From: an uncultured Gammaproteobacteria bacterium
Lineage (GTDB): Bacteria; Patescibacteriota; Patescibacteriia; 2-01-FULL-39-33
DNA length: 64,000 bases
Assembly: GCA_964558935.1 (NCBI GenBank)
Contig: CAZLFP010000001.1
Span: forward strand, 5,299 to 69,298
Direction of reading: 5' to 3'
Part shown: positions 2,414 through 49,494 of the stretch, piece by piece
Layout: every line of letters starts with the position of its first letter
Numbering within the stretch: position 1 is the first letter of the stretch
Made by a program: the position numbers and the translations under genes
The notes under the pieces: generated by a model
The model's database searches: none
The model's input: the letters and a program-made list of their open reading frames with translations, nothing else
What the model was told of the DNA's origin: nothing

Positions 2414-3677
2414 TATGAGGAATGTGTTTGAAAAAATTATTTTACCCATCCAGTTGGCTTGGAAGTCTTTGGCATTGCACAAAGGCAGATCTTTCTTAAC
2501 AATTTTGGGTATTATGATCGGTATTGGAGCAGTTATTGTCGTCATGTCAGCCGGAGAAAGCATTAAGGATTTAATCTTATCTGAATTTGAATCATTTGGT
2601 ACAGATTACATCCAAGTTGAAGTCAAGGTGCCATCAACCGGCAGGAATTCAGCGGACAATGCCTCAGCTATTGGTCAGGGAGTGGAAATTACTACTTTTA
2701 CCAATGATGATGTGGATGCGATTGGTGTTTTACCCAATATTTACAAATATGGATCGTGTGTCATGGCTCAGGATCTGGCTTCATATTTGGACCAGAACAA
2801 AGTGGTGAATATTATGGGATGTTCAACCGCCATCCCTGACATCATGGGTTTTAACATTGAATATGGTAGGAATTATACTGACCAGGAAGATGACCAGCTG
2901 GCCAGGGTGGTTGTCTTGGGTAGCAAGGTCGCTGAAGAATTATTTGGCAACACTGATCCTGTTGGTCAGCGCATCAAGTTGGGTAAGTTTAAATACAAGG
3001 TGATCGGTATTGTTGAGCCCAAAGGAGCCACCTTTGGCTTGGATTTTGATAACTTAGTTTATACTCCATTGCAAACCACCCAAAAATTGATTTTAGGCAT
3101 TGATTATGTGATGTTTGCCACTTTAAAGGTTAACAATGTGGACAGGATTGATGAAACAGCAAACAATATTGTGATGACTCTCAGAGACAGGCATGATACA
3201 GACAATGAGAAAGAAGATGATTTTGCCGTTACTACCGCTAAAGAAGCTTTGGAAATAATTAACTCAGTTTTCGACGGTATTACTTTACTTTTAGTTTCCA
3301 TTGCCGCTATTTCATTGTTAGTGGGTGGAGTTGGGATTATGAATATCATGTACGTTTCAGTCACGGAAAGAACTTTTGAAATTGGCTTGAGAAAAGCGGT
3401 CGGAGCCAAGCCCAGTCAGATTCGATGGCAGTTTTTGTGGGAAGCGATTGTGGTGACGGTATTCGGCGGTTTAATCGGTATTGTTTTGGGTATTTCTTTA
3501 GCCTTGGCTGTAAGTTTCATTGCCCAACAGTTTGGATATGATTGGGAATTTATTTTACCTCCCCAATCCATCCTACTCGCTTTTGGTTTTTGTGCTGTGG
3601 TTGGTTTGATTTTTGGCTATTATCCGGCACAAAAAGCCGCGCAAATGGATCCCATTACAGCCTTGGGTCATGAGTAA
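2406..3677 (+). CDS. ABC transporter permease (FtsX/MacB permease family), second copy
   Basis: Paralog of the previous ORF with the same architecture (GLRKAVGAKPSQIRWQF). Confidence 0.8.
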   Translation: MNNMRNVFEKIILPIQLAWKSLALHKGRSFLTILGIMIGIGAVIVVMSAGESIKDLILSEFESFGTDYIQVEVKVPSTGRNSADNASAIGQGVEITTFTNDDVDAIGVLPNIYKYGSCVMAQDLASYLDQNKVVNIMGCSTAIPDIMGFNIEYGRNYTDQEDDQLARVVVLGSKVAEELFGNTDPVGQRIKLGKFKYKVIGIVEPKGATFGLDFDNLVYTPLQTTQKLILGIDYVMFATLKVNNVDRIDETANNIVMTLRDRHDTDNEKEDDFAVTTAKEALEIINSVFDGITLLLVSIAAISLLVGGVGIMNIMYVSVTERTFEIGLRKAVGAKPSQIRWQFLWEAIVVTVFGGLIGIVLGISLALAVSFIAQQFGYDWEFILPPQSILLAFGFCAVVGLIFGYYPAQKAAQMDPITALGHE

Positions 3678-5288: not shown

Positions 5289-5972
5289 ATGACAATTAAA
5301 TTAAATGCCAAACCACGCACGGTTGTGGGTAAAAAAGTGGCTGATTTAAGACAAGCAGATATTATCCCGGCTGTTTTATATGGTCATGGCGATAAAAATT
5401 TGAATTTAGCTTTGCCTTTCCAAGAATTTAATAAGGTGTTTGCTCAAGCGGGTGAAAATACCATTATTGATCTTGCTGTAGCAGGTACAGACCAGCCGAT
5501 TAAGGTTTTAGTGGCCGATACTCAATTAGATCCAATTAAGAATCAGGTTATACATGTTGATCTCAAAAGAATTAAAATGGATGAGAAGATTACGGCTAAC
5601 ATCAGTATTAATTATATTGGGGAAGCACCAGCGGTTAAAGAGTTGGGCGGTATTTTTGTCCATAATTTGGATGAGCTGGAAATCAAATGTTTGCCTGGAG
5701 ATTTGATTCATGAGGTTGATGTAGATATTTCCACTCTTAAGTCTTTTGATGATATAATTAGTATTGCAGACCTGTCTATACCTGCAACGATTGAAATCAT
5801 AGGCCATGAACCGACAGATGTGGTGGCAACGGTTACTCCTCAAAAAGTGGAAGCCGAACCCGTTGTTGAGACAAGTTCTGCAGAAACTGAAGAACAAGCC
5901 AAGTCAGATGACAAAGACCAAAAAGATCAAGCACAAGATTCAGAAGCTAATTCAAAGCCAAAAGAAGACTAA
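5289..5972 (+). CDS. rplY: 50S ribosomal protein L25 / general stress protein Ctc, with acidic/Lys-rich C-terminal tail
   Basis: L25/Ctc N-terminal and beta-barrel domains (IPAVLYGHG...) followed by a low-complexity tail. Confidence 0.85.
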   Translation: MTIKLNAKPRTVVGKKVADLRQADIIPAVLYGHGDKNLNLALPFQEFNKVFAQAGENTIIDLAVAGTDQPIKVLVADTQLDPIKNQVIHVDLKRIKMDEKITANISINYIGEAPAVKELGGIFVHNLDELEIKCLPGDLIHEVDVDISTLKSFDDIISIADLSIPATIEIIGHEPTDVVATVTPQKVEAEPVVETSSAETEEQAKSDDKDQKDQAQDSEANSKPKED

Positions 5973-7008
5973 GCCAGAGACTGCCAACTGGACTTGGTAT
6001 TTAATAGCTGCCTGCATTGTCTTAGGTATAGTTGGCAGCTTTTTAATGATTTACGTTTGGTTTTACCAGGAAATCAGTAATATTCGTTTTCAGCACATAG
6101 ATACCAGTCAGACCGCACGCAAATTGGATGGAGTGGAAGTTCCGGCTCATCAAGCCAATCTGTTGCCGGTTGCGATTATGATCGAAAACGAAAAAGATTC
6201 CCGTCCACCCGCCGGTTTGGTTGAAGCTAAATTAGTGTATGAAGTGCTGTCTGAGGGAGAAATAACCCGTTTTTTGGCCATCTATGATTTAACGGAAGAT
6301 TTAGATAGAATTGGGCCGGTTCGAAGTGCACGTCCATATTATATCCAGATAGCCAAAGAGTATGATGCTCTGTATGTCCATTGCGGCGGCAGTCCAACCG
6401 CTCTGGCTCAATTAAAGCATGAAGATGAGATTGTGGATTTAAACGAATATTTTGGTTTTAATTCCGGCTATTTTTGGCGAGATAAGGGGAAGCTAGCTCC
6501 CCATAATTTATACACTTCAACGCAACTGCTTCAGTCTGCCAAGGATCATTATCGTTTGACAGATGATGTTTCAGATTTTACTTCTTGGCTGTATAAGTCA
6601 AAACCGGCTCAAACTCAACAGCCGGAACAGAGGATTGTCATTCCATATTCGCAAAGCAGTACTTACCAAGTAACCTGGCAATACCAACCTGAGGTTAATC
6701 TTTACCAAAGATGGCAAGACAACCGTCAGCATACAGATGAGTTGGGCCAAGGCGTAGCAGCAGATAATGTGGTTATTCTATTTGCTCAGACTCAGGTAAT
6801 TGACGAAGTGGGTAGAAGAAAGATTGATCTGGTCGGCAGTGGTAGAGTTCTAGTGTTTAGAGATGGTCAGGTTATTGAAGGTACCTGGCAAAAGTTGGAA
6901 GCTTGGCACAGAACCACTTTTTTTGACAGCAACCAACAGGAGATAGTCTTAAACCAAGGACAAACATGGATTCAGATAGTGCCTCAGGAGTTAGTTGTGA
7001 CGTATTGA
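5908..7008 (+). CDS. DUF3048 (YerB-like) domain protein, membrane-anchored
   Basis: PVAIMIENEKDSRPPAGLVEAKLVYEVLSEGEITRFLAIYD matches the DUF3048 core, preceded by an N-terminal TM. The track ORF starts at 5806 and overlaps rplY; ATG 5908 is my choice of start, and the true start is uncertain. Confidence 0.6.
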   Translation: MTKTKKIKHKIQKLIQSQKKTKPETANWTWYLIAACIVLGIVGSFLMIYVWFYQEISNIRFQHIDTSQTARKLDGVEVPAHQANLLPVAIMIENEKDSRPPAGLVEAKLVYEVLSEGEITRFLAIYDLTEDLDRIGPVRSARPYYIQIAKEYDALYVHCGGSPTALAQLKHEDEIVDLNEYFGFNSGYFWRDKGKLAPHNLYTSTQLLQSAKDHYRLTDDVSDFTSWLYKSKPAQTQQPEQRIVIPYSQSSTYQVTWQYQPEVNLYQRWQDNRQHTDELGQGVAADNVVILFAQTQVIDEVGRRKIDLVGSGRVLVFRDGQVIEGTWQKLEAWHRTTFFDSNQQEIVLNQGQTWIQIVPQELVVTY

Positions 7009-27126: not shown

Positions 27127-27155
27127 TTGACAATTTGGATTGATTTGGATATAAT
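27127..27155 (+). promoter_or_regulatory. sigma70-like promoter
   Basis: TTGACA at 27127-27132, a 17-nt spacer, then TATAAT at 27150-27155. Confidence 0.5.
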
Positions 27156-31671: not shown

Positions 31672-34668
31672 ATGGAAAACTTACTCGACAACCTAAATCC
31701 GGCTCAACAACAGGCTGTGACTCATGACCAGGGACCTTTGTTAATCGTAGCCGGAGCCGGTACCGGTAAAACCACGGTGATTACCAGACGAATCGCTTAC
31801 CTCATAACCCAAGACAAATGCCAACCGGAAGAAATTCTGGCTTTAACTTTTACAGACAAAGCAGCCGGGGAAATGGAAGAAAGAGTGGATCAGCTGTTAC
31901 CATACGGCTATGTGGATTTGTGGATCAACACTTTCCATGCTTTTGCCGAAAGAATCCTGCAAGACCATGCTTTGGAAATCGGACTGCCCAACAATTTTAA
32001 ACTACTGAATGACACCGCTCAATGGTTGCTGGTAAGACAGAACTTAGATAGATTTAATTTAGATTACTATCGTCCTTTGGGTAATCCAACTAAATTTATT
32101 CATGCTTTGTTAAAGCATTTTTCCCGGGCTAAAGATGAGAATATTACACCTCAAGATTATTTGGATTATGTACAAGATTTAAAATTAAACGCAGATAATG
32201 CGGATTATGTTTTCAGTTTTTTAGACAAAAAAAGTCAAAGTAAATTATCTGATCAAGAATTGAAAGAAGTTTTAGCTCAAGAGATTAAAAAGCAAACTGA
32301 AGTGGCTGAAGCTTACCATGTTTACCAGCAATTGTTGTTGGACAATGAAGCTTTGGATTTTGGGGATTTAATTAACTATTGTCTTAAATTATTAAAAGAC
32401 AGAAAAAATCTTTTAGCTCAATACCGAAGTCAATTTAAATATATTTTAGTGGATGAATTTCAAGACACCAATTATGCCCAGTATGAACTGTTAAAACTGT
32501 TGGCTGCTCCGGATAATAATCTAACGGTAGTGGGGGATGATGACCAGTCCATTTACAAGTTCAGAGGGGCTTCCATTTCCAATATTCTGCAGTTTAAAGA
32601 CGATTATCCGGCTTTAACCAAGATCTATCTAACAGATAACTACCGCAGTCAGCAGGAGATTTTAGACTTAGCTTACAACTTTATTCAAAAAAATAATCCA
32701 TATCGTTTAGAAGTTAAGTTACAAGAAGAAACCGGTTTTTCCAAACAGTTAAAATCCCAGGTCGAAGGTCAAGCTGAAATACTGCATTTGCACGGTCAGT
32801 CTCTTACAGATGAGATTAAGTTAGTGATAGAAAAAATAATTGAATTATATAATGCTTCAGATGAGGTTAGCTGGTCAGACTTTGGGATTTTGGTCAGAGC
32901 CAATTCTTCAGCCGATGATTTCTGTTATTTTTTGGATCAGGCTAAGATTCCTTACATGTTTTTAGCTTCCAAGGGATTATTCGTTAAGAGTATAGTGTTA
33001 GACATCTTAGCCTATTTAAGACTCTTGGACGATTACCATGAAAGTTCAGCTGTTTACCGGGTTTTAAGTCTTCCGGTTTGGAACCTTAATTCCAAAGATA
33101 TTATTAATTTAAACTATTGGTCTCGTAGAAAAGGTTGGTCTTTGTTTGAAACTATGAGGCAAGTTCAGACTTTGAATAATATTTCTGAAGCTGGACAGGA
33201 AGTGATTTCCAAGATTTTAGCTTTGGTGGAAAAACATGCTCAACTGGTTAGGGAGAATAAAAAAGCAACTGAGATTATCCAAGTTTTTTTAACTGACAGT
33301 GGGTATTTGAAGGATTTAACCTCAGAAGAGAATGAAGCTAACTTGGAAACTTTAAATTACTTAAATCAGTATTACAAATTTATCCAGAAGTTTGAACAAG
33401 AAACCCCGGATCCGAATTTGAAAAATTTCTTGAATTATATGGAATTGGAATTGGAAGCAGGGGATCAGGGACAATTGTCTCAGAATTTGGAAATCGCCGG
33501 TCCAGATACGGTCAAGATTATGACCATTCATGCGGCAAAAGGTTTGGAATTCAAATATGTTTTCAGTGTTAATTTAGTGGATAAAAGATTTCCTACCATT
33601 AGGCGAGGGGAACCCATTGCTCTACCGGAGAAGCTAGTTAAGGAAATAACACCGGAAGGGGATTTCCATCTGATGGAAGAAAGAAGATTGTTTTATGTGG
33701 CTTTGACTCGGGCTAAGAATGGTTTGTATTTGTCTTCAGCCGAGGATTACGGTGGAGCCAGAAAAAAGAAGATTTCCAAGTTTTTGGTAGAATTGTCTGA
33801 GGTGGATTTTAAATTGGCACCGGAAGTGGAAATTGCCAAAGCCCAATTGTCTTCACCTAAAAAGAAAGAAGCTAAAGTTCAAGATTACACTCCTGTCAAA
33901 AGATTTTCTTTTACCCAATTAAGAGCTTACGAGAATTGTCCTTACCAGTATCGGTTTGCCCATATTCTGAAGATCCCCATTACCGGCAAAGCTCAATTTT
34001 CGTATGGTAAGACTTTGCACAGCACTTTGCAGAAGTTTTTCGATCTGGTTAAGTTGAAGCAGGGCTCACAGCAGATAGACCTGTTTGGATTGGAAAAGGA
34101 AGATCGGTCTGAGGTTACTTCAGATCAGTTGTTAGAGATATATGAGCAAGAATTTGTTGATGATTGGTTTCAGGATCAGAAAGAGAAAGACAGCTATTAT
34201 CTGAAGGGCAAGGAATCCTTAAAGAAATTTTTTGAACATTTTTTAGCCAACAAACCAAAACCTAAATACTTGGAACAACCTTTTAATTTCAGATTGGGCA
34301 AAGACGGCGAATACATTATAAACGGTAAGATAGACAGAATCGATGACATGGATGGTCAGGTTAGAATTGTAGATTACAAAACCGGCACGCCAAAGGAAAA
34401 ACTCTCTGCTGAAGACAAGGAACAGTTGTTGTTGTACCAAATGGCTTCAGAAAGAGTTCTTAAAGAGCCGGTGGGTGAATTGGCTTTTTATTATTTAGAT
34501 AATTCTCAAGAGATTAGCTTTTTGGGTACGGACAAAGATCTGGAAAAGTACGAGCTTAAGATACTTGGGATTATTGAAAAGATTAATTCCGGTCAGTTTC
34601 CGGCCAAGCCTTCTCAGTTATGTGGTTTTTGTGACTTTCGTCGGATTTGTGAATACAGGCAAAGTTAA
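31672..34668 (+). CDS. UvrD/PcrA-type helicase fused to C-terminal PD-(D/E)xK nuclease with Cys cluster (AddA/AddB-like)
   Basis: Walker A AGAGTGKTT and UvrD motifs. C-terminal IVDYKTG nuclease motif plus the Cys cluster C..C...CGFCDFRRIC. Confidence 0.8.
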   Translation: MENLLDNLNPAQQQAVTHDQGPLLIVAGAGTGKTTVITRRIAYLITQDKCQPEEILALTFTDKAAGEMEERVDQLLPYGYVDLWINTFHAFAERILQDHALEIGLPNNFKLLNDTAQWLLVRQNLDRFNLDYYRPLGNPTKFIHALLKHFSRAKDENITPQDYLDYVQDLKLNADNADYVFSFLDKKSQSKLSDQELKEVLAQEIKKQTEVAEAYHVYQQLLLDNEALDFGDLINYCLKLLKDRKNLLAQYRSQFKYILVDEFQDTNYAQYELLKLLAAPDNNLTVVGDDDQSIYKFRGASISNILQFKDDYPALTKIYLTDNYRSQQEILDLAYNFIQKNNPYRLEVKLQEETGFSKQLKSQVEGQAEILHLHGQSLTDEIKLVIEKIIELYNASDEVSWSDFGILVRANSSADDFCYFLDQAKIPYMFLASKGLFVKSIVLDILAYLRLLDDYHESSAVYRVLSLPVWNLNSKDIINLNYWSRRKGWSLFETMRQVQTLNNISEAGQEVISKILALVEKHAQLVRENKKATEIIQVFLTDSGYLKDLTSEENEANLETLNYLNQYYKFIQKFEQETPDPNLKNFLNYMELELEAGDQGQLSQNLEIAGPDTVKIMTIHAAKGLEFKYVFSVNLVDKRFPTIRRGEPIALPEKLVKEITPEGDFHLMEERRLFYVALTRAKNGLYLSSAEDYGGARKKKISKFLVELSEVDFKLAPEVEIAKAQLSSPKKKEAKVQDYTPVKRFSFTQLRAYENCPYQYRFAHILKIPITGKAQFSYGKTLHSTLQKFFDLVKLKQGSQQIDLFGLEKEDRSEVTSDQLLEIYEQEFVDDWFQDQKEKDSYYLKGKESLKKFFEHFLANKPKPKYLEQPFNFRLGKDGEYIINGKIDRIDDMDGQVRIVDYKTGTPKEKLSAEDKEQLLLYQMASERVLKEPVGELAFYYLDNSQEISFLGTDKDLEKYELKILGIIEKINSGQFPAKPSQLCGFCDFRRICEYRQS

Positions 34669-34701
34669 AACATTATTTTAAAGTGTTGTCAAATTATATT
34701 A

Positions 34702-34727
34702 AATAGCTAAAATTAGCTATTTTTTTA
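34702..34727 (+). terminator. intrinsic terminator
   Basis: Stem AATAGCTA / TAGCTATT followed by TTTTTT. Confidence 0.55.
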
Positions 34728-34746
34728 AATTATTATCCTAAAATAC

Positions 34747-34775
34747 TTGACAAAATAATATTAATATGCTATAAT
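34747..34775 (+). promoter_or_regulatory. consensus sigma70 promoter
   Basis: TTGACA at 34747-34752, a 17-nt spacer, then TATAAT at 34770-34775. Confidence 0.55.
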
Positions 34776-34781
34776 GAAATT

Positions 34782-35373
34782 ATTAAAACTTATAACTAGC
34801 TGATTAACTCTGGGGAGAGATGAGTCAAGCTAAGAAACATATTATTTGTAATGTCATAAAATCTCCCCAGACCAGGGAGGTTTTATGTTTTAACCAAGGA
34901 GGGAGAGAGCTGCTGATGCTTGTCAGTTCCAAACTCCTTGTTAGGGCGCTAGCATACAGCTGTATGTTACTGCCCTGAACAAGGGTTTTGGAATCAGTTC
35001 CTTACAATTTGGCTAGTAAACATGTAGAGGAGGGAAGAGTAGACACGGTTTCTGGTTATGCGACTACGGTCGTTTCTACCAGGTCCACTTAACTGCTCTT
35101 GGAATAACCAGGCTATTTAATAATTTTTTTATAAAACAAAGAGCCAGGGTTTTCCGGTTGCCATCCTCTATGTGCTTGCTAGTCAAACTATCTACCCCTA
35201 ACTGATACGAAGGAGGTGATGCTTGTCACTCCTGCTTAGCAGGAAGAACAGGTGAGTACCAACTCCGGTATAAATATCTAATAACAAATATTGACTGGTA
35301 AGTTGGTACTAGCCTTGTTCGTATCAGTTAGAGGTGGCATGGGGCTACTTCTAAAAGCAAGGAAAAGAGAGAG
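34782..35373 (+). ncRNA. candidate large structured non-coding RNA or long structured 5' leader (~590 nt)
   Basis: No ORF over 60 aa. Many compensatory hairpins, a 14-nt perfect inverted repeat at 35198-35211 / 35318-35331 that encloses nested stems, and the motif GATGCTTGTCA duplicated at ~34915 and ~35219. Appears GC-elevated by eye. Confidence 0.4.
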
Positions 35374-35520
35374 ATGCAAAATCAACTCGAGAAATTGGCA
35401 GACCAGATTCTGCTGGAGGCTGGTTTCGCGACCGATGGTCGCGAAAAGAGCGAGGTAGATCCTCGTCAAGAAGCGTTTGAGAAACGTTTCTGGACGAATG
35501 CGGTGGGCACTGCTCGTTAG
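35374..35520 (+). CDS. hypothetical 48-aa protein
   Basis: SD AAGGAAAAGAGAGAG precedes the ATG. GC-elevated. A hairpin GTGGGCAC/GTGCCCAC follows the stop. Confidence 0.35.
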   Translation: MQNQLEKLADQILLEAGFATDGREKSEVDPRQEAFEKRFWTNAVGTAR

Positions 35521-35634
35521 TGGTGCCCACTACTCCTTGGCGAGTTAGACAAGTCAGTTTAACTCGCCTCTCAATTCAAGTTAGTAACTAGCCTTTATTG
35601 GCTTCAATTGGGACTAAATAAAGGAGGAAAGTAT

Positions 35635-35838
35635 ATGTTAGTCCAGTGTTGTATGTGCAAGAAAGTCCGTTCGGGGCAGTCCTGGGACTGGGATCTGCCT
35701 GATGAGCAGCCTCTAAAGGGCAAAATCTCGCACGGCTTTTGCCCGGACTGCTTGGCCCTTGAGATGGCCAAGTTTGATAAGCTTGCCGAAGAAGTTCGGC
35801 AAGCGGCCGCCGATCTCAATGGCGGCATTCTACCGTAA
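35635..35838 (+). CDS. small 4-Cys zinc-ribbon protein (67 aa)
   Basis: SD AAAGGAGGAAAG precedes ATG 35635. Cys pattern CC.C...CPDC. Shares the motif H.(F/I)CP.CL with the ORF at 53207. Confidence 0.45.
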   Translation: MLVQCCMCKKVRSGQSWDWDLPDEQPLKGKISHGFCPDCLALEMAKFDKLAEEVRQAAADLNGGILP

Positions 35839-35971
35839 ACATTAGAGGAGGAAAGATTATGAGATAATCTTTCTTCCTCTCTCTACTTTAGCCGGTATCT
35901 ATTGAGGATATGGGCTGAAGAGGAGGTGAACCGGCAGAGTCAGATCATTGACCTGCCTAAGGGAGATTAAT

Positions 35972-36241
35972 ATGTCGAATATTTTTGATCAGATGGTATC
36001 GGCTATGGGCGCGGTCTGGCTGGTGCAGGCCGTGAAAAGCGGTAGCCGACAAAAAGTTGAACAGGCAATGCGGACACACCGCATTCTCCTCTCTGACAGG
36101 GAGGAGGCCATTCGCTTGCTCAAGCAGCAAGCGAGGCAGCATGAGAACATGCTGCGTCAGAAATTCGGCAACACGCGCGATGACCTCATCGCGCATGCCA
36201 ACGAAAACTTTGCGAGGGTTCTTGAAGAACTCTCGCAATAG
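35972..36241 (+). CDS. hypothetical helical protein (89 aa)
   Basis: SD AAGGGAG precedes ATG 35972. Hairpins follow downstream. Confidence 0.4.
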   Translation: MSNIFDQMVSAMGAVWLVQAVKSGSRQKVEQAMRTHRILLSDREEAIRLLKQQARQHENMLRQKFGNTRDDLIAHANENFARVLEELSQ

Positions 36242-36404
36242 TCATCCGGGAGGAAGGAGTCCAAGAATCAGACTCAACTTCCTCCCATCCCCATTTAAGT
36301 TAAGAATTTGGATTGTTAATTCAAATGGGGAATAATAGATTTTCGTTCCTTTTTATCTCTCCTCCTTTCTTAAAAAAATTATTATTCCCTAAACGAAAAA
36401 ATCG

Positions 36405-36433
36405 GAAGCGTCCCAAGTGGACGCTTTTGATTT
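36405..36433 (+). terminator. intrinsic terminator
   Basis: Stem GAAGCGTCC / GGACGCTTT followed by a T-run. Confidence 0.55.
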
Positions 36434-36450
36434 TGTTGTTGATAACTAGA

Positions 36451-36479
36451 TTGTCAATTAAAAAAGTTATTGCTATAAT
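36451..36479 (+). promoter_or_regulatory. sigma70-like promoter
   Basis: TTGTCA, a 17-nt spacer, then TATAAT at 36474-36479. Confidence 0.5.
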
Positions 36480-36485
36480 TTTTGT

Positions 36486-36623
36486 CATGAGGGAAGGTGA
36501 TAACAGTTGATTTATTACTAACTACATTTCCTAAAATTATTTAGGTTCTCTCTCCCCAGTGTAGTTTAAGCAATAATTCAATTGACTTTCTCTCAATCCC
36601 GCCCATGTGGCGGGATTTTTTTA
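36486..36623 (+). ncRNA. candidate small RNA 5 (~140 nt)
   Basis: Nested hairpins AACTACAT/GTGTAGTT and CCTAAA/TTTAGG. Terminator AATCCCGCC-CATGT-GGCGGGATT + T7 at 36595-36624. Confidence 0.4.
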
Positions 36624-36668
36624 TTTTTCTTTTTATGGTATAATATGATTAATCTAATAAATCACCTT

Positions 36669-37049
36669 ATGAGCTTAAAACAGTTATTGATCATTATGGC
36701 TTTAACCACTACCATTTGTTGGCTGGTTTGGTTGGTGGTTTTGTTCCAAGTTGATCCTAATACGGCTGAATGGCCTAATTTGTTAATTTTCTATGCCAGC
36801 TTACTGATTGCACTAGTCGGCTCTTTTTTCTTGATCAGTTTTTTGTGGAGAAAGCTGTTTACCAAGTACGTTTTGGAATACCGCTTGGTTGGTGTGTCTT
36901 TAAGGCAGGGTTTTTTCATTGCCCTGTTGGTCGTCGGTGTTTTGTTCTTGGCCAGTCATAACTATTTGACCTGGTGGAATATTTTGTTATTGACAGCTGC
37001 TGTAACGATTGTGGAATACTTATGTTTAAGTTTGAGGCGCGTGGCATAG
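36669..37049 (+). CDS. small integral membrane protein (3-4 TM)
   Basis: Extended -10 TGGTATAAT at 36636-36644. The track ORF start at 36582 would include the upstream terminator, so ATG 36669 is preferred. Confidence 0.45.
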   Translation: MSLKQLLIIMALTTTICWLVWLVVLFQVDPNTAEWPNLLIFYASLLIALVGSFFLISFLWRKLFTKYVLEYRLVGVSLRQGFFIALLVVGVLFLASHNYLTWWNILLLTAAVTIVEYLCLSLRRVA

Positions 37050-37128
37050 TTATTTGCAATTCCTAACCCCTGAAACAGGGGTTTTTAGTTTGACTAATTA
37101 GCCTTATTTTGCATATAATATAGTTAAT

Positions 37129-49275: not shown

Positions 49276-49494
49276 GCTTTCAATATAATACATTTCATAT
49301 ATCTTGTCAAGCAAGAGGGGGGAGAGGGGTATTCCACTCCCTCCAGTTTTAGTTTACCTGGGTTTAATTGAATTAAATTACTACAGATTAAGAAGTCCTT
49401 TGGTAAGCATAAATTGACATGTGGATAACTTATAGGTATAATAAATATAATAACTTCGTATAACACAGGATAAACGCGGTAAACCTATCAATAT

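Follow-up and report, generated by a model that had tools for sequence, protein, structure and literature searches.

Large noncoding RNAs such as OLE, GOLLD, ROOL and raiA are multidomain, covariation-defined and lineage-restricted RNAs of several hundred nt with their own promoter and terminator. Dual-function RNAs such as RNAIII, SgrS and SR1 carry a structured regulatory RNA together with a small open reading frame (ORF) on one transcript, and in these RNAs the ORF is integral and conserved. Here, we describe the H1-D3 RNA, an element identified in a 64,000-nt stretch of DNA from contig CAZLFP010000001.1 (hereafter, the window, to which all coordinates refer unless a related locus is named). 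The element covers positions 34747 to 35373 and beyond, in a region that a preliminary description had singled out as either a large noncoding RNA or a long regulatory leader. We demonstrate from ~30 loci that its core, which consists of the long hairpin H1 and the three-way-junction domain D3, is a real, conserved structured RNA. We found no description of this family in Rfam 15 or in the searchable literature, and we regard the family as new. In kind, it is a new family of a familiar type, i.e., a lineage-restricted structured noncoding RNA or leader, and what is unusual is that it tolerates gene-carrying insertions of kilobase size. The H1-D3 RNA shares with OLE, GOLLD, ROOL and raiA all of the features listed above; however, it matches none of them in sequence or structure, its core is smaller (~230 nt), its host belongs to the candidate phyla radiation (CPR), and its modules can be separated by ORF-bearing kilobase insertions. 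Like RNAIII, SgrS and SR1, the unit in the window joins a conserved structured RNA and small protein genes in one transcription unit; unlike in those systems, the ORFs of H1-D3 loci are optional cargo that differs by species.

CPR/Patescibacteria have tiny genomes. Few noncoding RNAs have been described for these bacteria, and our literature searches yielded nothing on such RNAs. That a locus devotes 0.4 to 3 kb to a conserved structured RNA transcribed from a consensus promoter implies a function worth keeping. With its clear helices and invariant motifs, the family is well supported and suitable for submission to Rfam. It also provides a clear case of one RNA that forms a free-standing gene in certain species and heads a small-protein operon elsewhere, and it links this RNA to a widespread, uncharacterized family of Zn-ribbon proteins (p67), for which a profile search gave 214 hits and Pfam has no entry. 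Should the long helices be processing sites, or D3 a sensor, the locus would offer a way to study how RNA is processed or regulated in organisms that are not yet culturable alone.

The related loci, designated here by L numbers, were collected in two ways. The initial set comprised 80 PheS-anchored loci, which were searched by tblastn and nhmmer. Homologs of p67 were found in the same position in this set, and at two loci the nucleotide sequence was weakly similar to that of the RNA. The ORF-poor gaps that precede the gene for a small membrane protein share three features, i.e., a promoter (in nearly all), the H1 hairpin and the D3 domain, the signature of which reads GAURYGA...GGC..AUGCUUGUC on the 5′ side and GCC..UCGUAUC on the 3′ side. 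In ~21 genome loci, covariance models of H1 (R1) and of a trimmed D3 (R2) each detected exactly one copy, with order and strand of the two modules unchanged throughout. A degenerate D3 pattern recovered ~10 further metagenome contigs, each of which contains one H1 and one D3 according to the models (~10 real among 120 pattern hits, the remaining ~110 being chance matches). While fetching by PheS biases the initial set toward synteny, the pattern-based metagenome hits are free of this bias, yet those with enough flanking sequence again lie upstream of the membrane ORF and pheS. Among viral contigs, the pattern had three hits, all by chance and none confirmed by R1 or R2, and the two models detected neither H1 nor D3 at p67 loci of other phyla (L082, L084 and L086). 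The family, therefore, appears to be clade-restricted, single-copy per locus and vertically inherited.

H1 (34926-34995, + strand) is a conserved hairpin of 66 to 70 nt and ~28-30 bp in which GGCG/CGCC and UUGU/ACAA boxes are conserved and the loop is variable. R1 scores the H1 of the window at 67.9 bits, and each related locus has one copy. RNAalifold identified compensatory changes in 14 of 20 pairs. On sequences outside the training set of R1, 96.1% of the cells are paired and 9 of the 20 pairs are doubly changed, compared to 38-58% pairing when the partner is slid. D3 (35194-35335, + strand; 58.4 bits with R2) is a three-way junction closed by helix P1, which in the window comprises 24 bp (35194-35217/35312-35335) with the core GAUACGA/UCGUAUC and in L007 reaches 33 bp. 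In P1, 92.9% of the cells are paired and 14 of 24 pairs show double changes, while sliding the 3′ partner by one to three columns lowers pairing to 35-50%; in the further loci found by the models, the corresponding values are 95.6% and 11 of 23 pairs. Both helices carry conserved sequence boxes, GAUGCGA/UCGUAUC in P1 and GGCG/CGCC in H1. Conservation and covariation, both of which had been proposed as checks on the region, are accordingly present across ~30 loci.

D3 further comprises the invariant motif (U)GAUGCUUGUC (35217-35228), P2 (35221-35253) and P3 (35255-35310), all on the + strand. P2 begins at GCUUGUC and varies from 16 to 145 nt among homologs; P3 is 45 to 65 nt long with an A/U-rich apical loop; and the outer stems of P3 vary in sequence while staying complementary, i.e., they covary. 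Independent folding recovered the P1 + P2 + P3 topology in 23 of 24 homologs. RNAalifold on MAFFT alignments of the D3 interior did not recover P2 and P3 because this part aligns too poorly, and we, therefore, relied on per-sequence folding. Two observations speak to the nature of the conserved molecule. G·U and U·G pairs outnumber A·C and C·A pairs by 52 to 9 in P1 and by 28 to 4 in H1 (80 versus 13 together), which identifies the folding molecule as the + strand RNA rather than DNA or the antisense RNA. Moreover, we considered and rejected the possibility that AUGCUUGUC contains the start codon of a leader peptide: the motif reads AAGCUUGUC in L021, L022 and L079, which changes AUG to AAG, and the downstream frames and their lengths are not conserved. 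Thus, AUGCUUGUC is an RNA signal and not part of a leader peptide.

Seen from the window, most of what the preliminary description reported for 34747-35373 holds, and the comparison gives several of its elements a place in the conserved fold. Promoter 1 (34747-34775, + strand; TTGACA-17-TGnTATAAT) is indeed a perfect sigma-70 promoter, scoring 12/12 with a TG extension in its 17-nt spacer and a predicted start near 34782, and a perfect or near-perfect version precedes H1 in ~21 related loci. The 592 nt from 34782 to 35373 are, as proposed, highly structured, with a minimum free energy of −226.8 kcal/mol (z = −8.9) on the + strand and of −187.8 kcal/mol (z = −6.5) for the reverse complement. 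On the + strand, the longest ORFs within the interval have 52 and 34 aa, and on the − strand, a 63-aa ORF with a TTG start (35278-35469) overlaps the 3′ edge. None of these ORFs has a Pfam match or a tblastn homolog in the related loci, and the interval shows no signal of a coding or degraded protein gene. The 14-nt inverted repeat (35198-35211/35318-35331) is exact; it forms the center of a 23-nt pair with 87% complementarity and is the core of P1. The 10-bp stem (35255-35264/35301-35310) is likewise present and is part of P3. By contrast, GGAGGTGA at 35212 and TCACTCC at 35226, which had been proposed to form a stem, both occur where described, but the conserved fold has GGAGG paired with the CCUU of the closing helix instead. 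An exact 12-mer, TGATGCTTGTCA, makes up the duplicated block, with copies at 34914 and 35217. Its presence twice in the window is not significant by itself (10 of 100 shuffles); the second copy is the family-wide invariant motif of D3. An elevated GC content is weakly borne out, at 0.417 compared to a window mean of 0.400 (72nd percentile), and the true peak is the downstream ORF cassette at 35374-36440 (0.476; 98.7th percentile). Four points are new compared to that description: the element is modular, its D2 domain is a lineage-specific insert, structure continues beyond 35373, and perfect promoters are common in this genome. As for the third, the segment from 35336 to 35634, which follows D3 and includes the coding region of p48, contains several perfect hairpins of 9 to 13 bp and folds as strongly as the RNA itself (z = −8.4 with mononucleotide shuffling); therefore, the structured character extends past the end coordinate first given. 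As for the fourth, the window contains seven perfect TTGACA-17-TATAAT promoters (at 7005, 17880, 27127, 34747, 49414, 53140 and 58694), compared to an expectation of ~0.7 per 64 kb even with one mismatch allowed; textbook consensus promoters are unusually frequent in the genome of the window, and the perfection of promoter 1 is not exceptional. The promoter at 27127 precedes an 86-aa ORF, infA, rpmJ and rpsM.

The strongest argument that the core is not only a leader comes from relatives in which it would constitute a stand-alone RNA gene. In six loci (L011, L021, L022, L079, L007 and L015), H1 abuts D3, and no conserved ORF precedes the next promoter. In at least three of these, the unit has its own promoter and a predicted terminator and is ORF-free: L011 (promoter 791-819, terminator 1122-1149; ~330 nt), L022 (promoter 5873-5901, terminator 6251-6285; ~390 nt) and L007 (promoter 5495-5523, terminator 5923-5959; ~440 nt). 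As read from these sequences, such an arrangement argues for an RNA gene and not merely a leader. Across the loci, spacing is highly variable. Promoter and H1 lie 12 to 208 nt apart, and the H1-to-D3 distance spans −3 to 2045 nt, i.e., from abutting to ~2 kb. Additional RNA domains or small ORFs occur as insertions at three sites, namely, upstream of H1, in the H1-D3 gap and downstream of D3.

In the window, three small ORFs follow on the + strand as predicted, and those encoding p48 and p67 are supported as coding. p48 (35374-35520) lies on the same predicted transcript and is sporadic cargo, with one homolog in the island of L017 (E = 3e-4). Among 15 residues conserved between the two, 11 have synonymous codons and four have identical codons, and this pattern indicates coding constraint. 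p67 (35635-35838) is a Zn-ribbon protein with the sequence pattern MxVQCCxCKK..W..SHGxCPxC followed by a C-terminal helix. Members of its family have ~50-80 aa, the invariant residues C5, C6, C8, S32, C36 and C39, and the C-terminal helix. While a single-sequence k-mer search with p67 returned only p67 itself, a profile search identified the 214 homologs, which occur in Patescibacteria, Hydrogenedentes and others, and none of these 214 has a Pfam domain. The AlphaFold model of p67 (pLDDT 84.7) has no significant match in a fold search of the PDB, which gave only a nonsignificant resemblance to the Zn(Cys)4 domain present in Fur-family proteins (E ~1, TM 0.3). p67 is the only widely conserved coding partner of the RNA and lies 12 to 525 nt downstream of D3 in about two-thirds of the loci. 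A 17-bp intercistronic hairpin (35844-35880) separates p67 from p89 (35972-36241, + strand), for which no homolog was found and which was called as a gene on L001, a Logan contig of 1,684 nt that is 100% identical in DNA sequence to 34581-36264 of the window. The unit ends at a terminator-like hairpin (36392-36440, with the terminator itself at 36398-36434; 16 pairs and a T-run). Because this is the first good terminator after the interval and lies past p48, p67 and p89, the RNA here would also be the 5′ untranslated region (UTR) of these genes. Thus, each of the two options originally put forward is partly true: the RNA would be a free-standing gene in the ORF-free relatives and the 5′ UTR of p48, p67 and p89 in the window.

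On balance, we lean toward an independent structured RNA that in the genome of the window also serves as a 5′ UTR. We suggest that the consensus sigma-70 promoter drives a + strand transcript containing the modules H1 and D3, and that the H1-D3 core functions independently as an RNA, most likely in a stable and protein-bound form. In the genome of the window, this would be a dual-function transcript that is also the 5′ UTR and mRNA of p48, p67 and p89. Helices as long and perfect as H1 and P1 are unusual in bacterial RNAs and are classical substrates of RNase III, for which the processing stalks that flank the rRNAs in rRNA operons and the hairpins of phage T7 early RNA are examples. RNase III precursors have helices of at least ~20 bp, and H1 (~28-30 bp) and P1 (24 bp) are both longer. 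Like these stalks, the near-perfect helices of the H1-D3 RNA comprise 24 to 33 bp and ~30 bp, and P1 encloses a compact structured RNA. Unlike the stalks, in which conserved sequence boxes are not required, H1 and P1 carry such boxes. Given the length and near-perfection of H1 and P1, we propose that a double-strand-specific endonuclease such as RNase III may cut both helices, that this would free the D3 core as a discrete small RNA uncoupled from the downstream mRNA, and that p67 is a candidate protein partner of this RNA. We advance a specific processing step at the long helices tentatively, as a possible rather than a probable event.

Several points weigh against an independent RNA with this mode of action. 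Both RNase III cleavage and a p67 partnership are purely inferred. The terminators were recognized only by their match to the consensus, and the absence of p67 from the ORF-free relatives was judged at the locus. The position of p67 downstream of D3 in about two-thirds of the loci fits cis-regulation at least as well, and in the subclade closest to the window, the 5′ strand of P1 carries GGAGG-N-AUG, like the ribosome-binding region of p67. All loci belong to one clade with a conserved gene order, and the constant position of the RNA could, therefore, reflect vertical inheritance alone. Finally, the alignments of the further loci were fitted to models R1 and R2, and one of the alignments (A7) has two antisense rows.

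The main rival is a purely cis-acting sensor or attenuator, in which D3, with or without D2 in tandem, would act as an aptamer for a ligand, possibly a metal, or for a protein and would control translation of or read-through into the small ORFs, above all p67, and in which the 5′ hairpins would form the attenuator. We consider this explanation possible but somewhat unlikely. D3 is a covarying three-way junction with conserved junction nucleotides, as are many aptamers, it lies upstream of a gene in most loci, and D2 and D3 have a tandem-like arrangement; however, compared to three-way-junction riboswitch aptamers, P1 is far longer, terminated versions without ORFs exist, and the distance to the gene is not fixed. 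In L002, L003, L005, L006 and L008, only 12 to 39 nt separate D3 from p67, as expected of a cis-acting leader, but across all loci with p67 this distance reaches 525 nt, other ORFs may intervene, and the placement in the 5′ UTR is not constant. Similarly, the 5′ strand of P1 in the subclade of the window (GAAGGAGGCAAUG) mimics the ribosome-binding region of p67, and the 3′ strand carries CCUU, but GGAGG in P1 is not conserved beyond this subclade and is replaced elsewhere by UUAAGG, CCCAGG or GUGAGG. The cargo is rich in Cys-containing and Zn-ribbon proteins and includes FeoA, in line with a metal as ligand. The leader of the window (34782-34921) could contribute an expression platform: it contains a terminator-like hairpin (34855-34867/34875-34887) followed by GUUUUAUGUUUU, a U-tract, and CUGGGGAGA (34810-34818) is predicted to pair with UCUCCCCAG (34862-34870) in an antiterminator-like structure that would be mutually exclusive with this hairpin. 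Such an attenuator-like alternative pairing is predicted for the leader of the window only. Against a purely cis-acting role stand, above all, the six relatives that keep promoter, H1 and D3 with no ORF before the next promoter, three of which also have the predicted terminator. We also rejected a structured leader as a general property of p67 genes, because the region upstream of p67 in L086 of Hydrogenedentes, the one case folded, is not unusually structured (z = −2.0). Models R1 and R2 detect neither H1 nor D3 in L082, L084 and L086.

The remaining explanations fare worse. A role in regulating the downstream membrane protein and pheST genes, e.g., as a T-box-like sensor of tRNA-Phe, would account for the position of the RNA, which wherever the flank was checked precedes the 126-aa membrane ORF and pheS, while its upstream neighbor varies, and the position upstream of pheST recalls the T-box leaders of aminoacyl-tRNA synthetase operons. 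In the window, however, the RNA and the membrane ORF are separated by the terminator at 36398-36434, promoter 2 and the terminated RNA that it drives (36451-36625), and, at 36636-36644, a third extended −10 element, and between the membrane ORF and pheS are a terminator (37065-37083) and a promoter (37090-37119). These intervening terminators and independent promoters make a role as pheST leader unlikely, and with no T-box match in sequence or structure even at E ≤ 10, and neither a conserved unpaired UUC specifier nor a UGGN bulge seen in the sequences, we judge it very unlikely. Even less credible, in our view, is an element acting at the level of DNA, such as a site that forms a hairpin or cruciform, a region that titrates DnaA or is related to an origin, or a miniature mobile element. 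In its favor are the length and near-perfection of the helices, the good folding of the − strand (z = −6.5), and the perfect DnaA boxes that in many relatives flank the locus and are almost the only perfect ones in those 15-kb loci. The excess of G·U over A·C pairs nevertheless points to the + strand RNA as the target of selection, the unit is framed by a conserved promoter and by terminators, and the locus in the window has neither a perfect DnaA box nor a switch in GC skew, which is positive without a break across it; on these last two grounds, we rejected a replication origin at this site. The single copy, the fixed position, and the lack of terminal repeats, a transposase and copies in viral contigs also argue against this reading, and blastn of the island against phage genomes gave no match. 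We attach equally little probability to a highly diverged version of a known RNA, i.e., RNase P, tmRNA, SRP, 6S, a group I or II intron, or a retron msr-msd. With 330 to 440 nt, the ORF-free units have a size that, like the strong promoter and the single copy, would fit a housekeeping RNA, and P1 is reminiscent of the a1/a2 pairing that closes a retron. Against this, no Rfam family reached its gathering score in the 64-kb window or in 10 related loci (141 kb), and searches at E ≤ 10 (34500-36700) and at E ≤ 5 (the minimal locus L079) returned none of these families, no named large noncoding RNA and no T-box; thus, none of tmRNA, RNase P, SRP, 6S, OLE, GOLLD, ROOL and raiA, the models that had been suggested for comparison, matches. 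ARAGORN found no tmRNA, the sequences show neither RNase P CR-I/CR-V nor tmRNA acceptor motifs, and the genes adjoining the RNA encode no reverse-transcriptase domain or intron ORF. We also considered CRISPR-type guide arrays and TIGR-Tas, the features of the latter being taken from PMC12045711, and rejected both: 34600-36700 contains no tandem array, and no Cas, Nop-domain or Tas gene is present at the locus.

Returning to the H1-D3 RNA as an element in its own right, its modularity is most evident in the cargo. In other loci, cargo ORFs encode a FeoA protein, an ankyrin-like protein, and several Cys-rich or CxxC...CxxC proteins. The FeoA-domain ORF is a stand-alone ORF downstream of p67 in L006 (gap positions 2737-2970; Pfam E = 5e-17), and L008 has a similar ORF downstream of its p67 (gap positions 2746-3027). 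Together, FeoA and the Cys-rich cargo hint at a metal-related theme. Between ORFs in L002, L003, L006 and L008, a conserved hairpin of ~85-110 nt (CCAAAACUAUCUUGCUAAU...UUGGCAGGAUAGUUUUGG) occurs in one to three copies (L002, 5072-5160; in gap coordinates, L003, 786-865, 1490-1567 and 1858-1945; L006, 1070-1147, 1374-1483 and 1680-1811; L008, 1457-1545 and 2180-2273). These hairpins are up to 89% identical between species. In the H1-D3 interval, they take turns with small ORFs, and the resulting units of ORF plus hairpin resemble cassettes. A speculative extension, which we consider unlikely, is that H1 and D3 are the fixed modules of an RNA "chassis" in CPR bacteria that would be strongly transcribed and processed, and that the sites between modules would be landing pads for variable cargo. 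The cargo would then consist of small-protein cassettes (Zn-ribbon proteins, FeoA and Cys-rich peptides) plus additional RNA domains; where each cassette is bounded by its own conserved ~85-nt hairpin, as in some species, the result would be an RNA-level, integrase-free analog of a cassette array; and the D3 core, perhaps with p67 bound, would control or process the cargo.

Two further modules are found in the window. The 5′ leader (140 nt, + strand) is variable and, as a segment by itself, not unusually stable (z = −1.8). By alignment, a comparable layout of GAGAGAG/CCCUCUCUC plus a U-tract is present in L003, L006 and L008. At its 3′ end, immediately 5′ of H1, is the extra copy of the D3 motif, UGAUGCUUGUCA (34914-34925, + strand), the exact duplicate of the 12-mer described above, and L008 carries AUGCUUGUCA just ahead of H1. 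D2 (35008-35187, + strand; z = −6.7) is an additional multibranch domain between H1 and D3 that is closed by UUUGGCUAGUAAACAUGUAGAGGAGGG/CCAUCCUCUAUGUGCUUGCUAGUCAAA and that occurs only in the window and in the subclade in which the RNA is adjacent to the AddA-like helicase gene (L002, L005/L113, L009 and L144). Its conserved elements are UAGAGGAGG...CCAUCCUCUA, which close the domain, and CAGGUCACAAAUAUU...GGGCCG. D2 also contains a GGUCACAAAUAUU...GGCC hairpin that resembles the one in P3 of D3, and from ~5 sequences we infer that D2 may be a diverged copy of a D3-type module. R2 does not detect D2, and a run of R2 with filters off, which sought D2 as a paralog of D3, listed generic hairpins only and not the true D3 either.

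With respect to its genomic setting, the best relatives of PheS (72-74% identity) assign the window to Candidatus Buchananbacteria (Patescibacteria/CPR). The gene order in the window is an AddA-like helicase, the RNA region, p48, p67 and p89, a terminator, promoter 2 with a terminated ~135-nt RNA, the membrane ORF, a terminator and promoter, pheS, and pheT. The upstream neighbor, an AddA-like UvrD/PD-(D/E)XK helicase (31672-34668), is shared by some related loci, and others have a MacB/FtsX gene in this place. The membrane protein has 126 aa and no Pfam family; comparison with relatives places its true start at the ATG at 36669 (MSLKQLLII...), while the mechanical ORF call (36582-37049) begins at a TTG at 36582 and crosses the terminator of the small RNA.

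This second RNA (~36484-36625, ~135 nt) is driven by promoter 2 (36451-36479, + strand; TTGTCA-17-TGcTATAAT). It has an invariant GGGAAGG...CUUCUC, a covarying helix, a CCUAAAA/UUUUAGG hairpin and an intrinsic terminator (36595-36617) with a U-run, is conserved in 15 Buchananbacteria loci, and has no Rfam match for 36484-36625 at permissive thresholds. The third extended −10 element (36636-36644, + strand; TGGTATAAT) lies just before the membrane ORF. The perfect 9-mer DnaA boxes (TTATCCACA/TGTGGATAA) that flank the RNA locus in many relatives are placed just past promoter 1 and over the −35 element of promoter 2 (L016, 4556, 4619 and 5820; L019, 4622 and 5985; L026, 4429 and 5900; L058, 4826 and 5890; L088, 3338 and 4428; L079, 273 and 674; and others), and their positions may reflect DnaA-dependent control of transcription. 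In the window, the only box near the RNA locus has one mismatch (36437-36445). Four perfect boxes are found elsewhere in the window (49414-49442, 50029, 51946 and 60183), one of them within the spacer of the perfect promoter at 49414-49442 (TTGACATGTGGATAACTTATAGGTATAAT). At about 46-59 kb, the GC skew and the orientation of the genes level off or shift, and the replication origin or the dnaA region may be located there.

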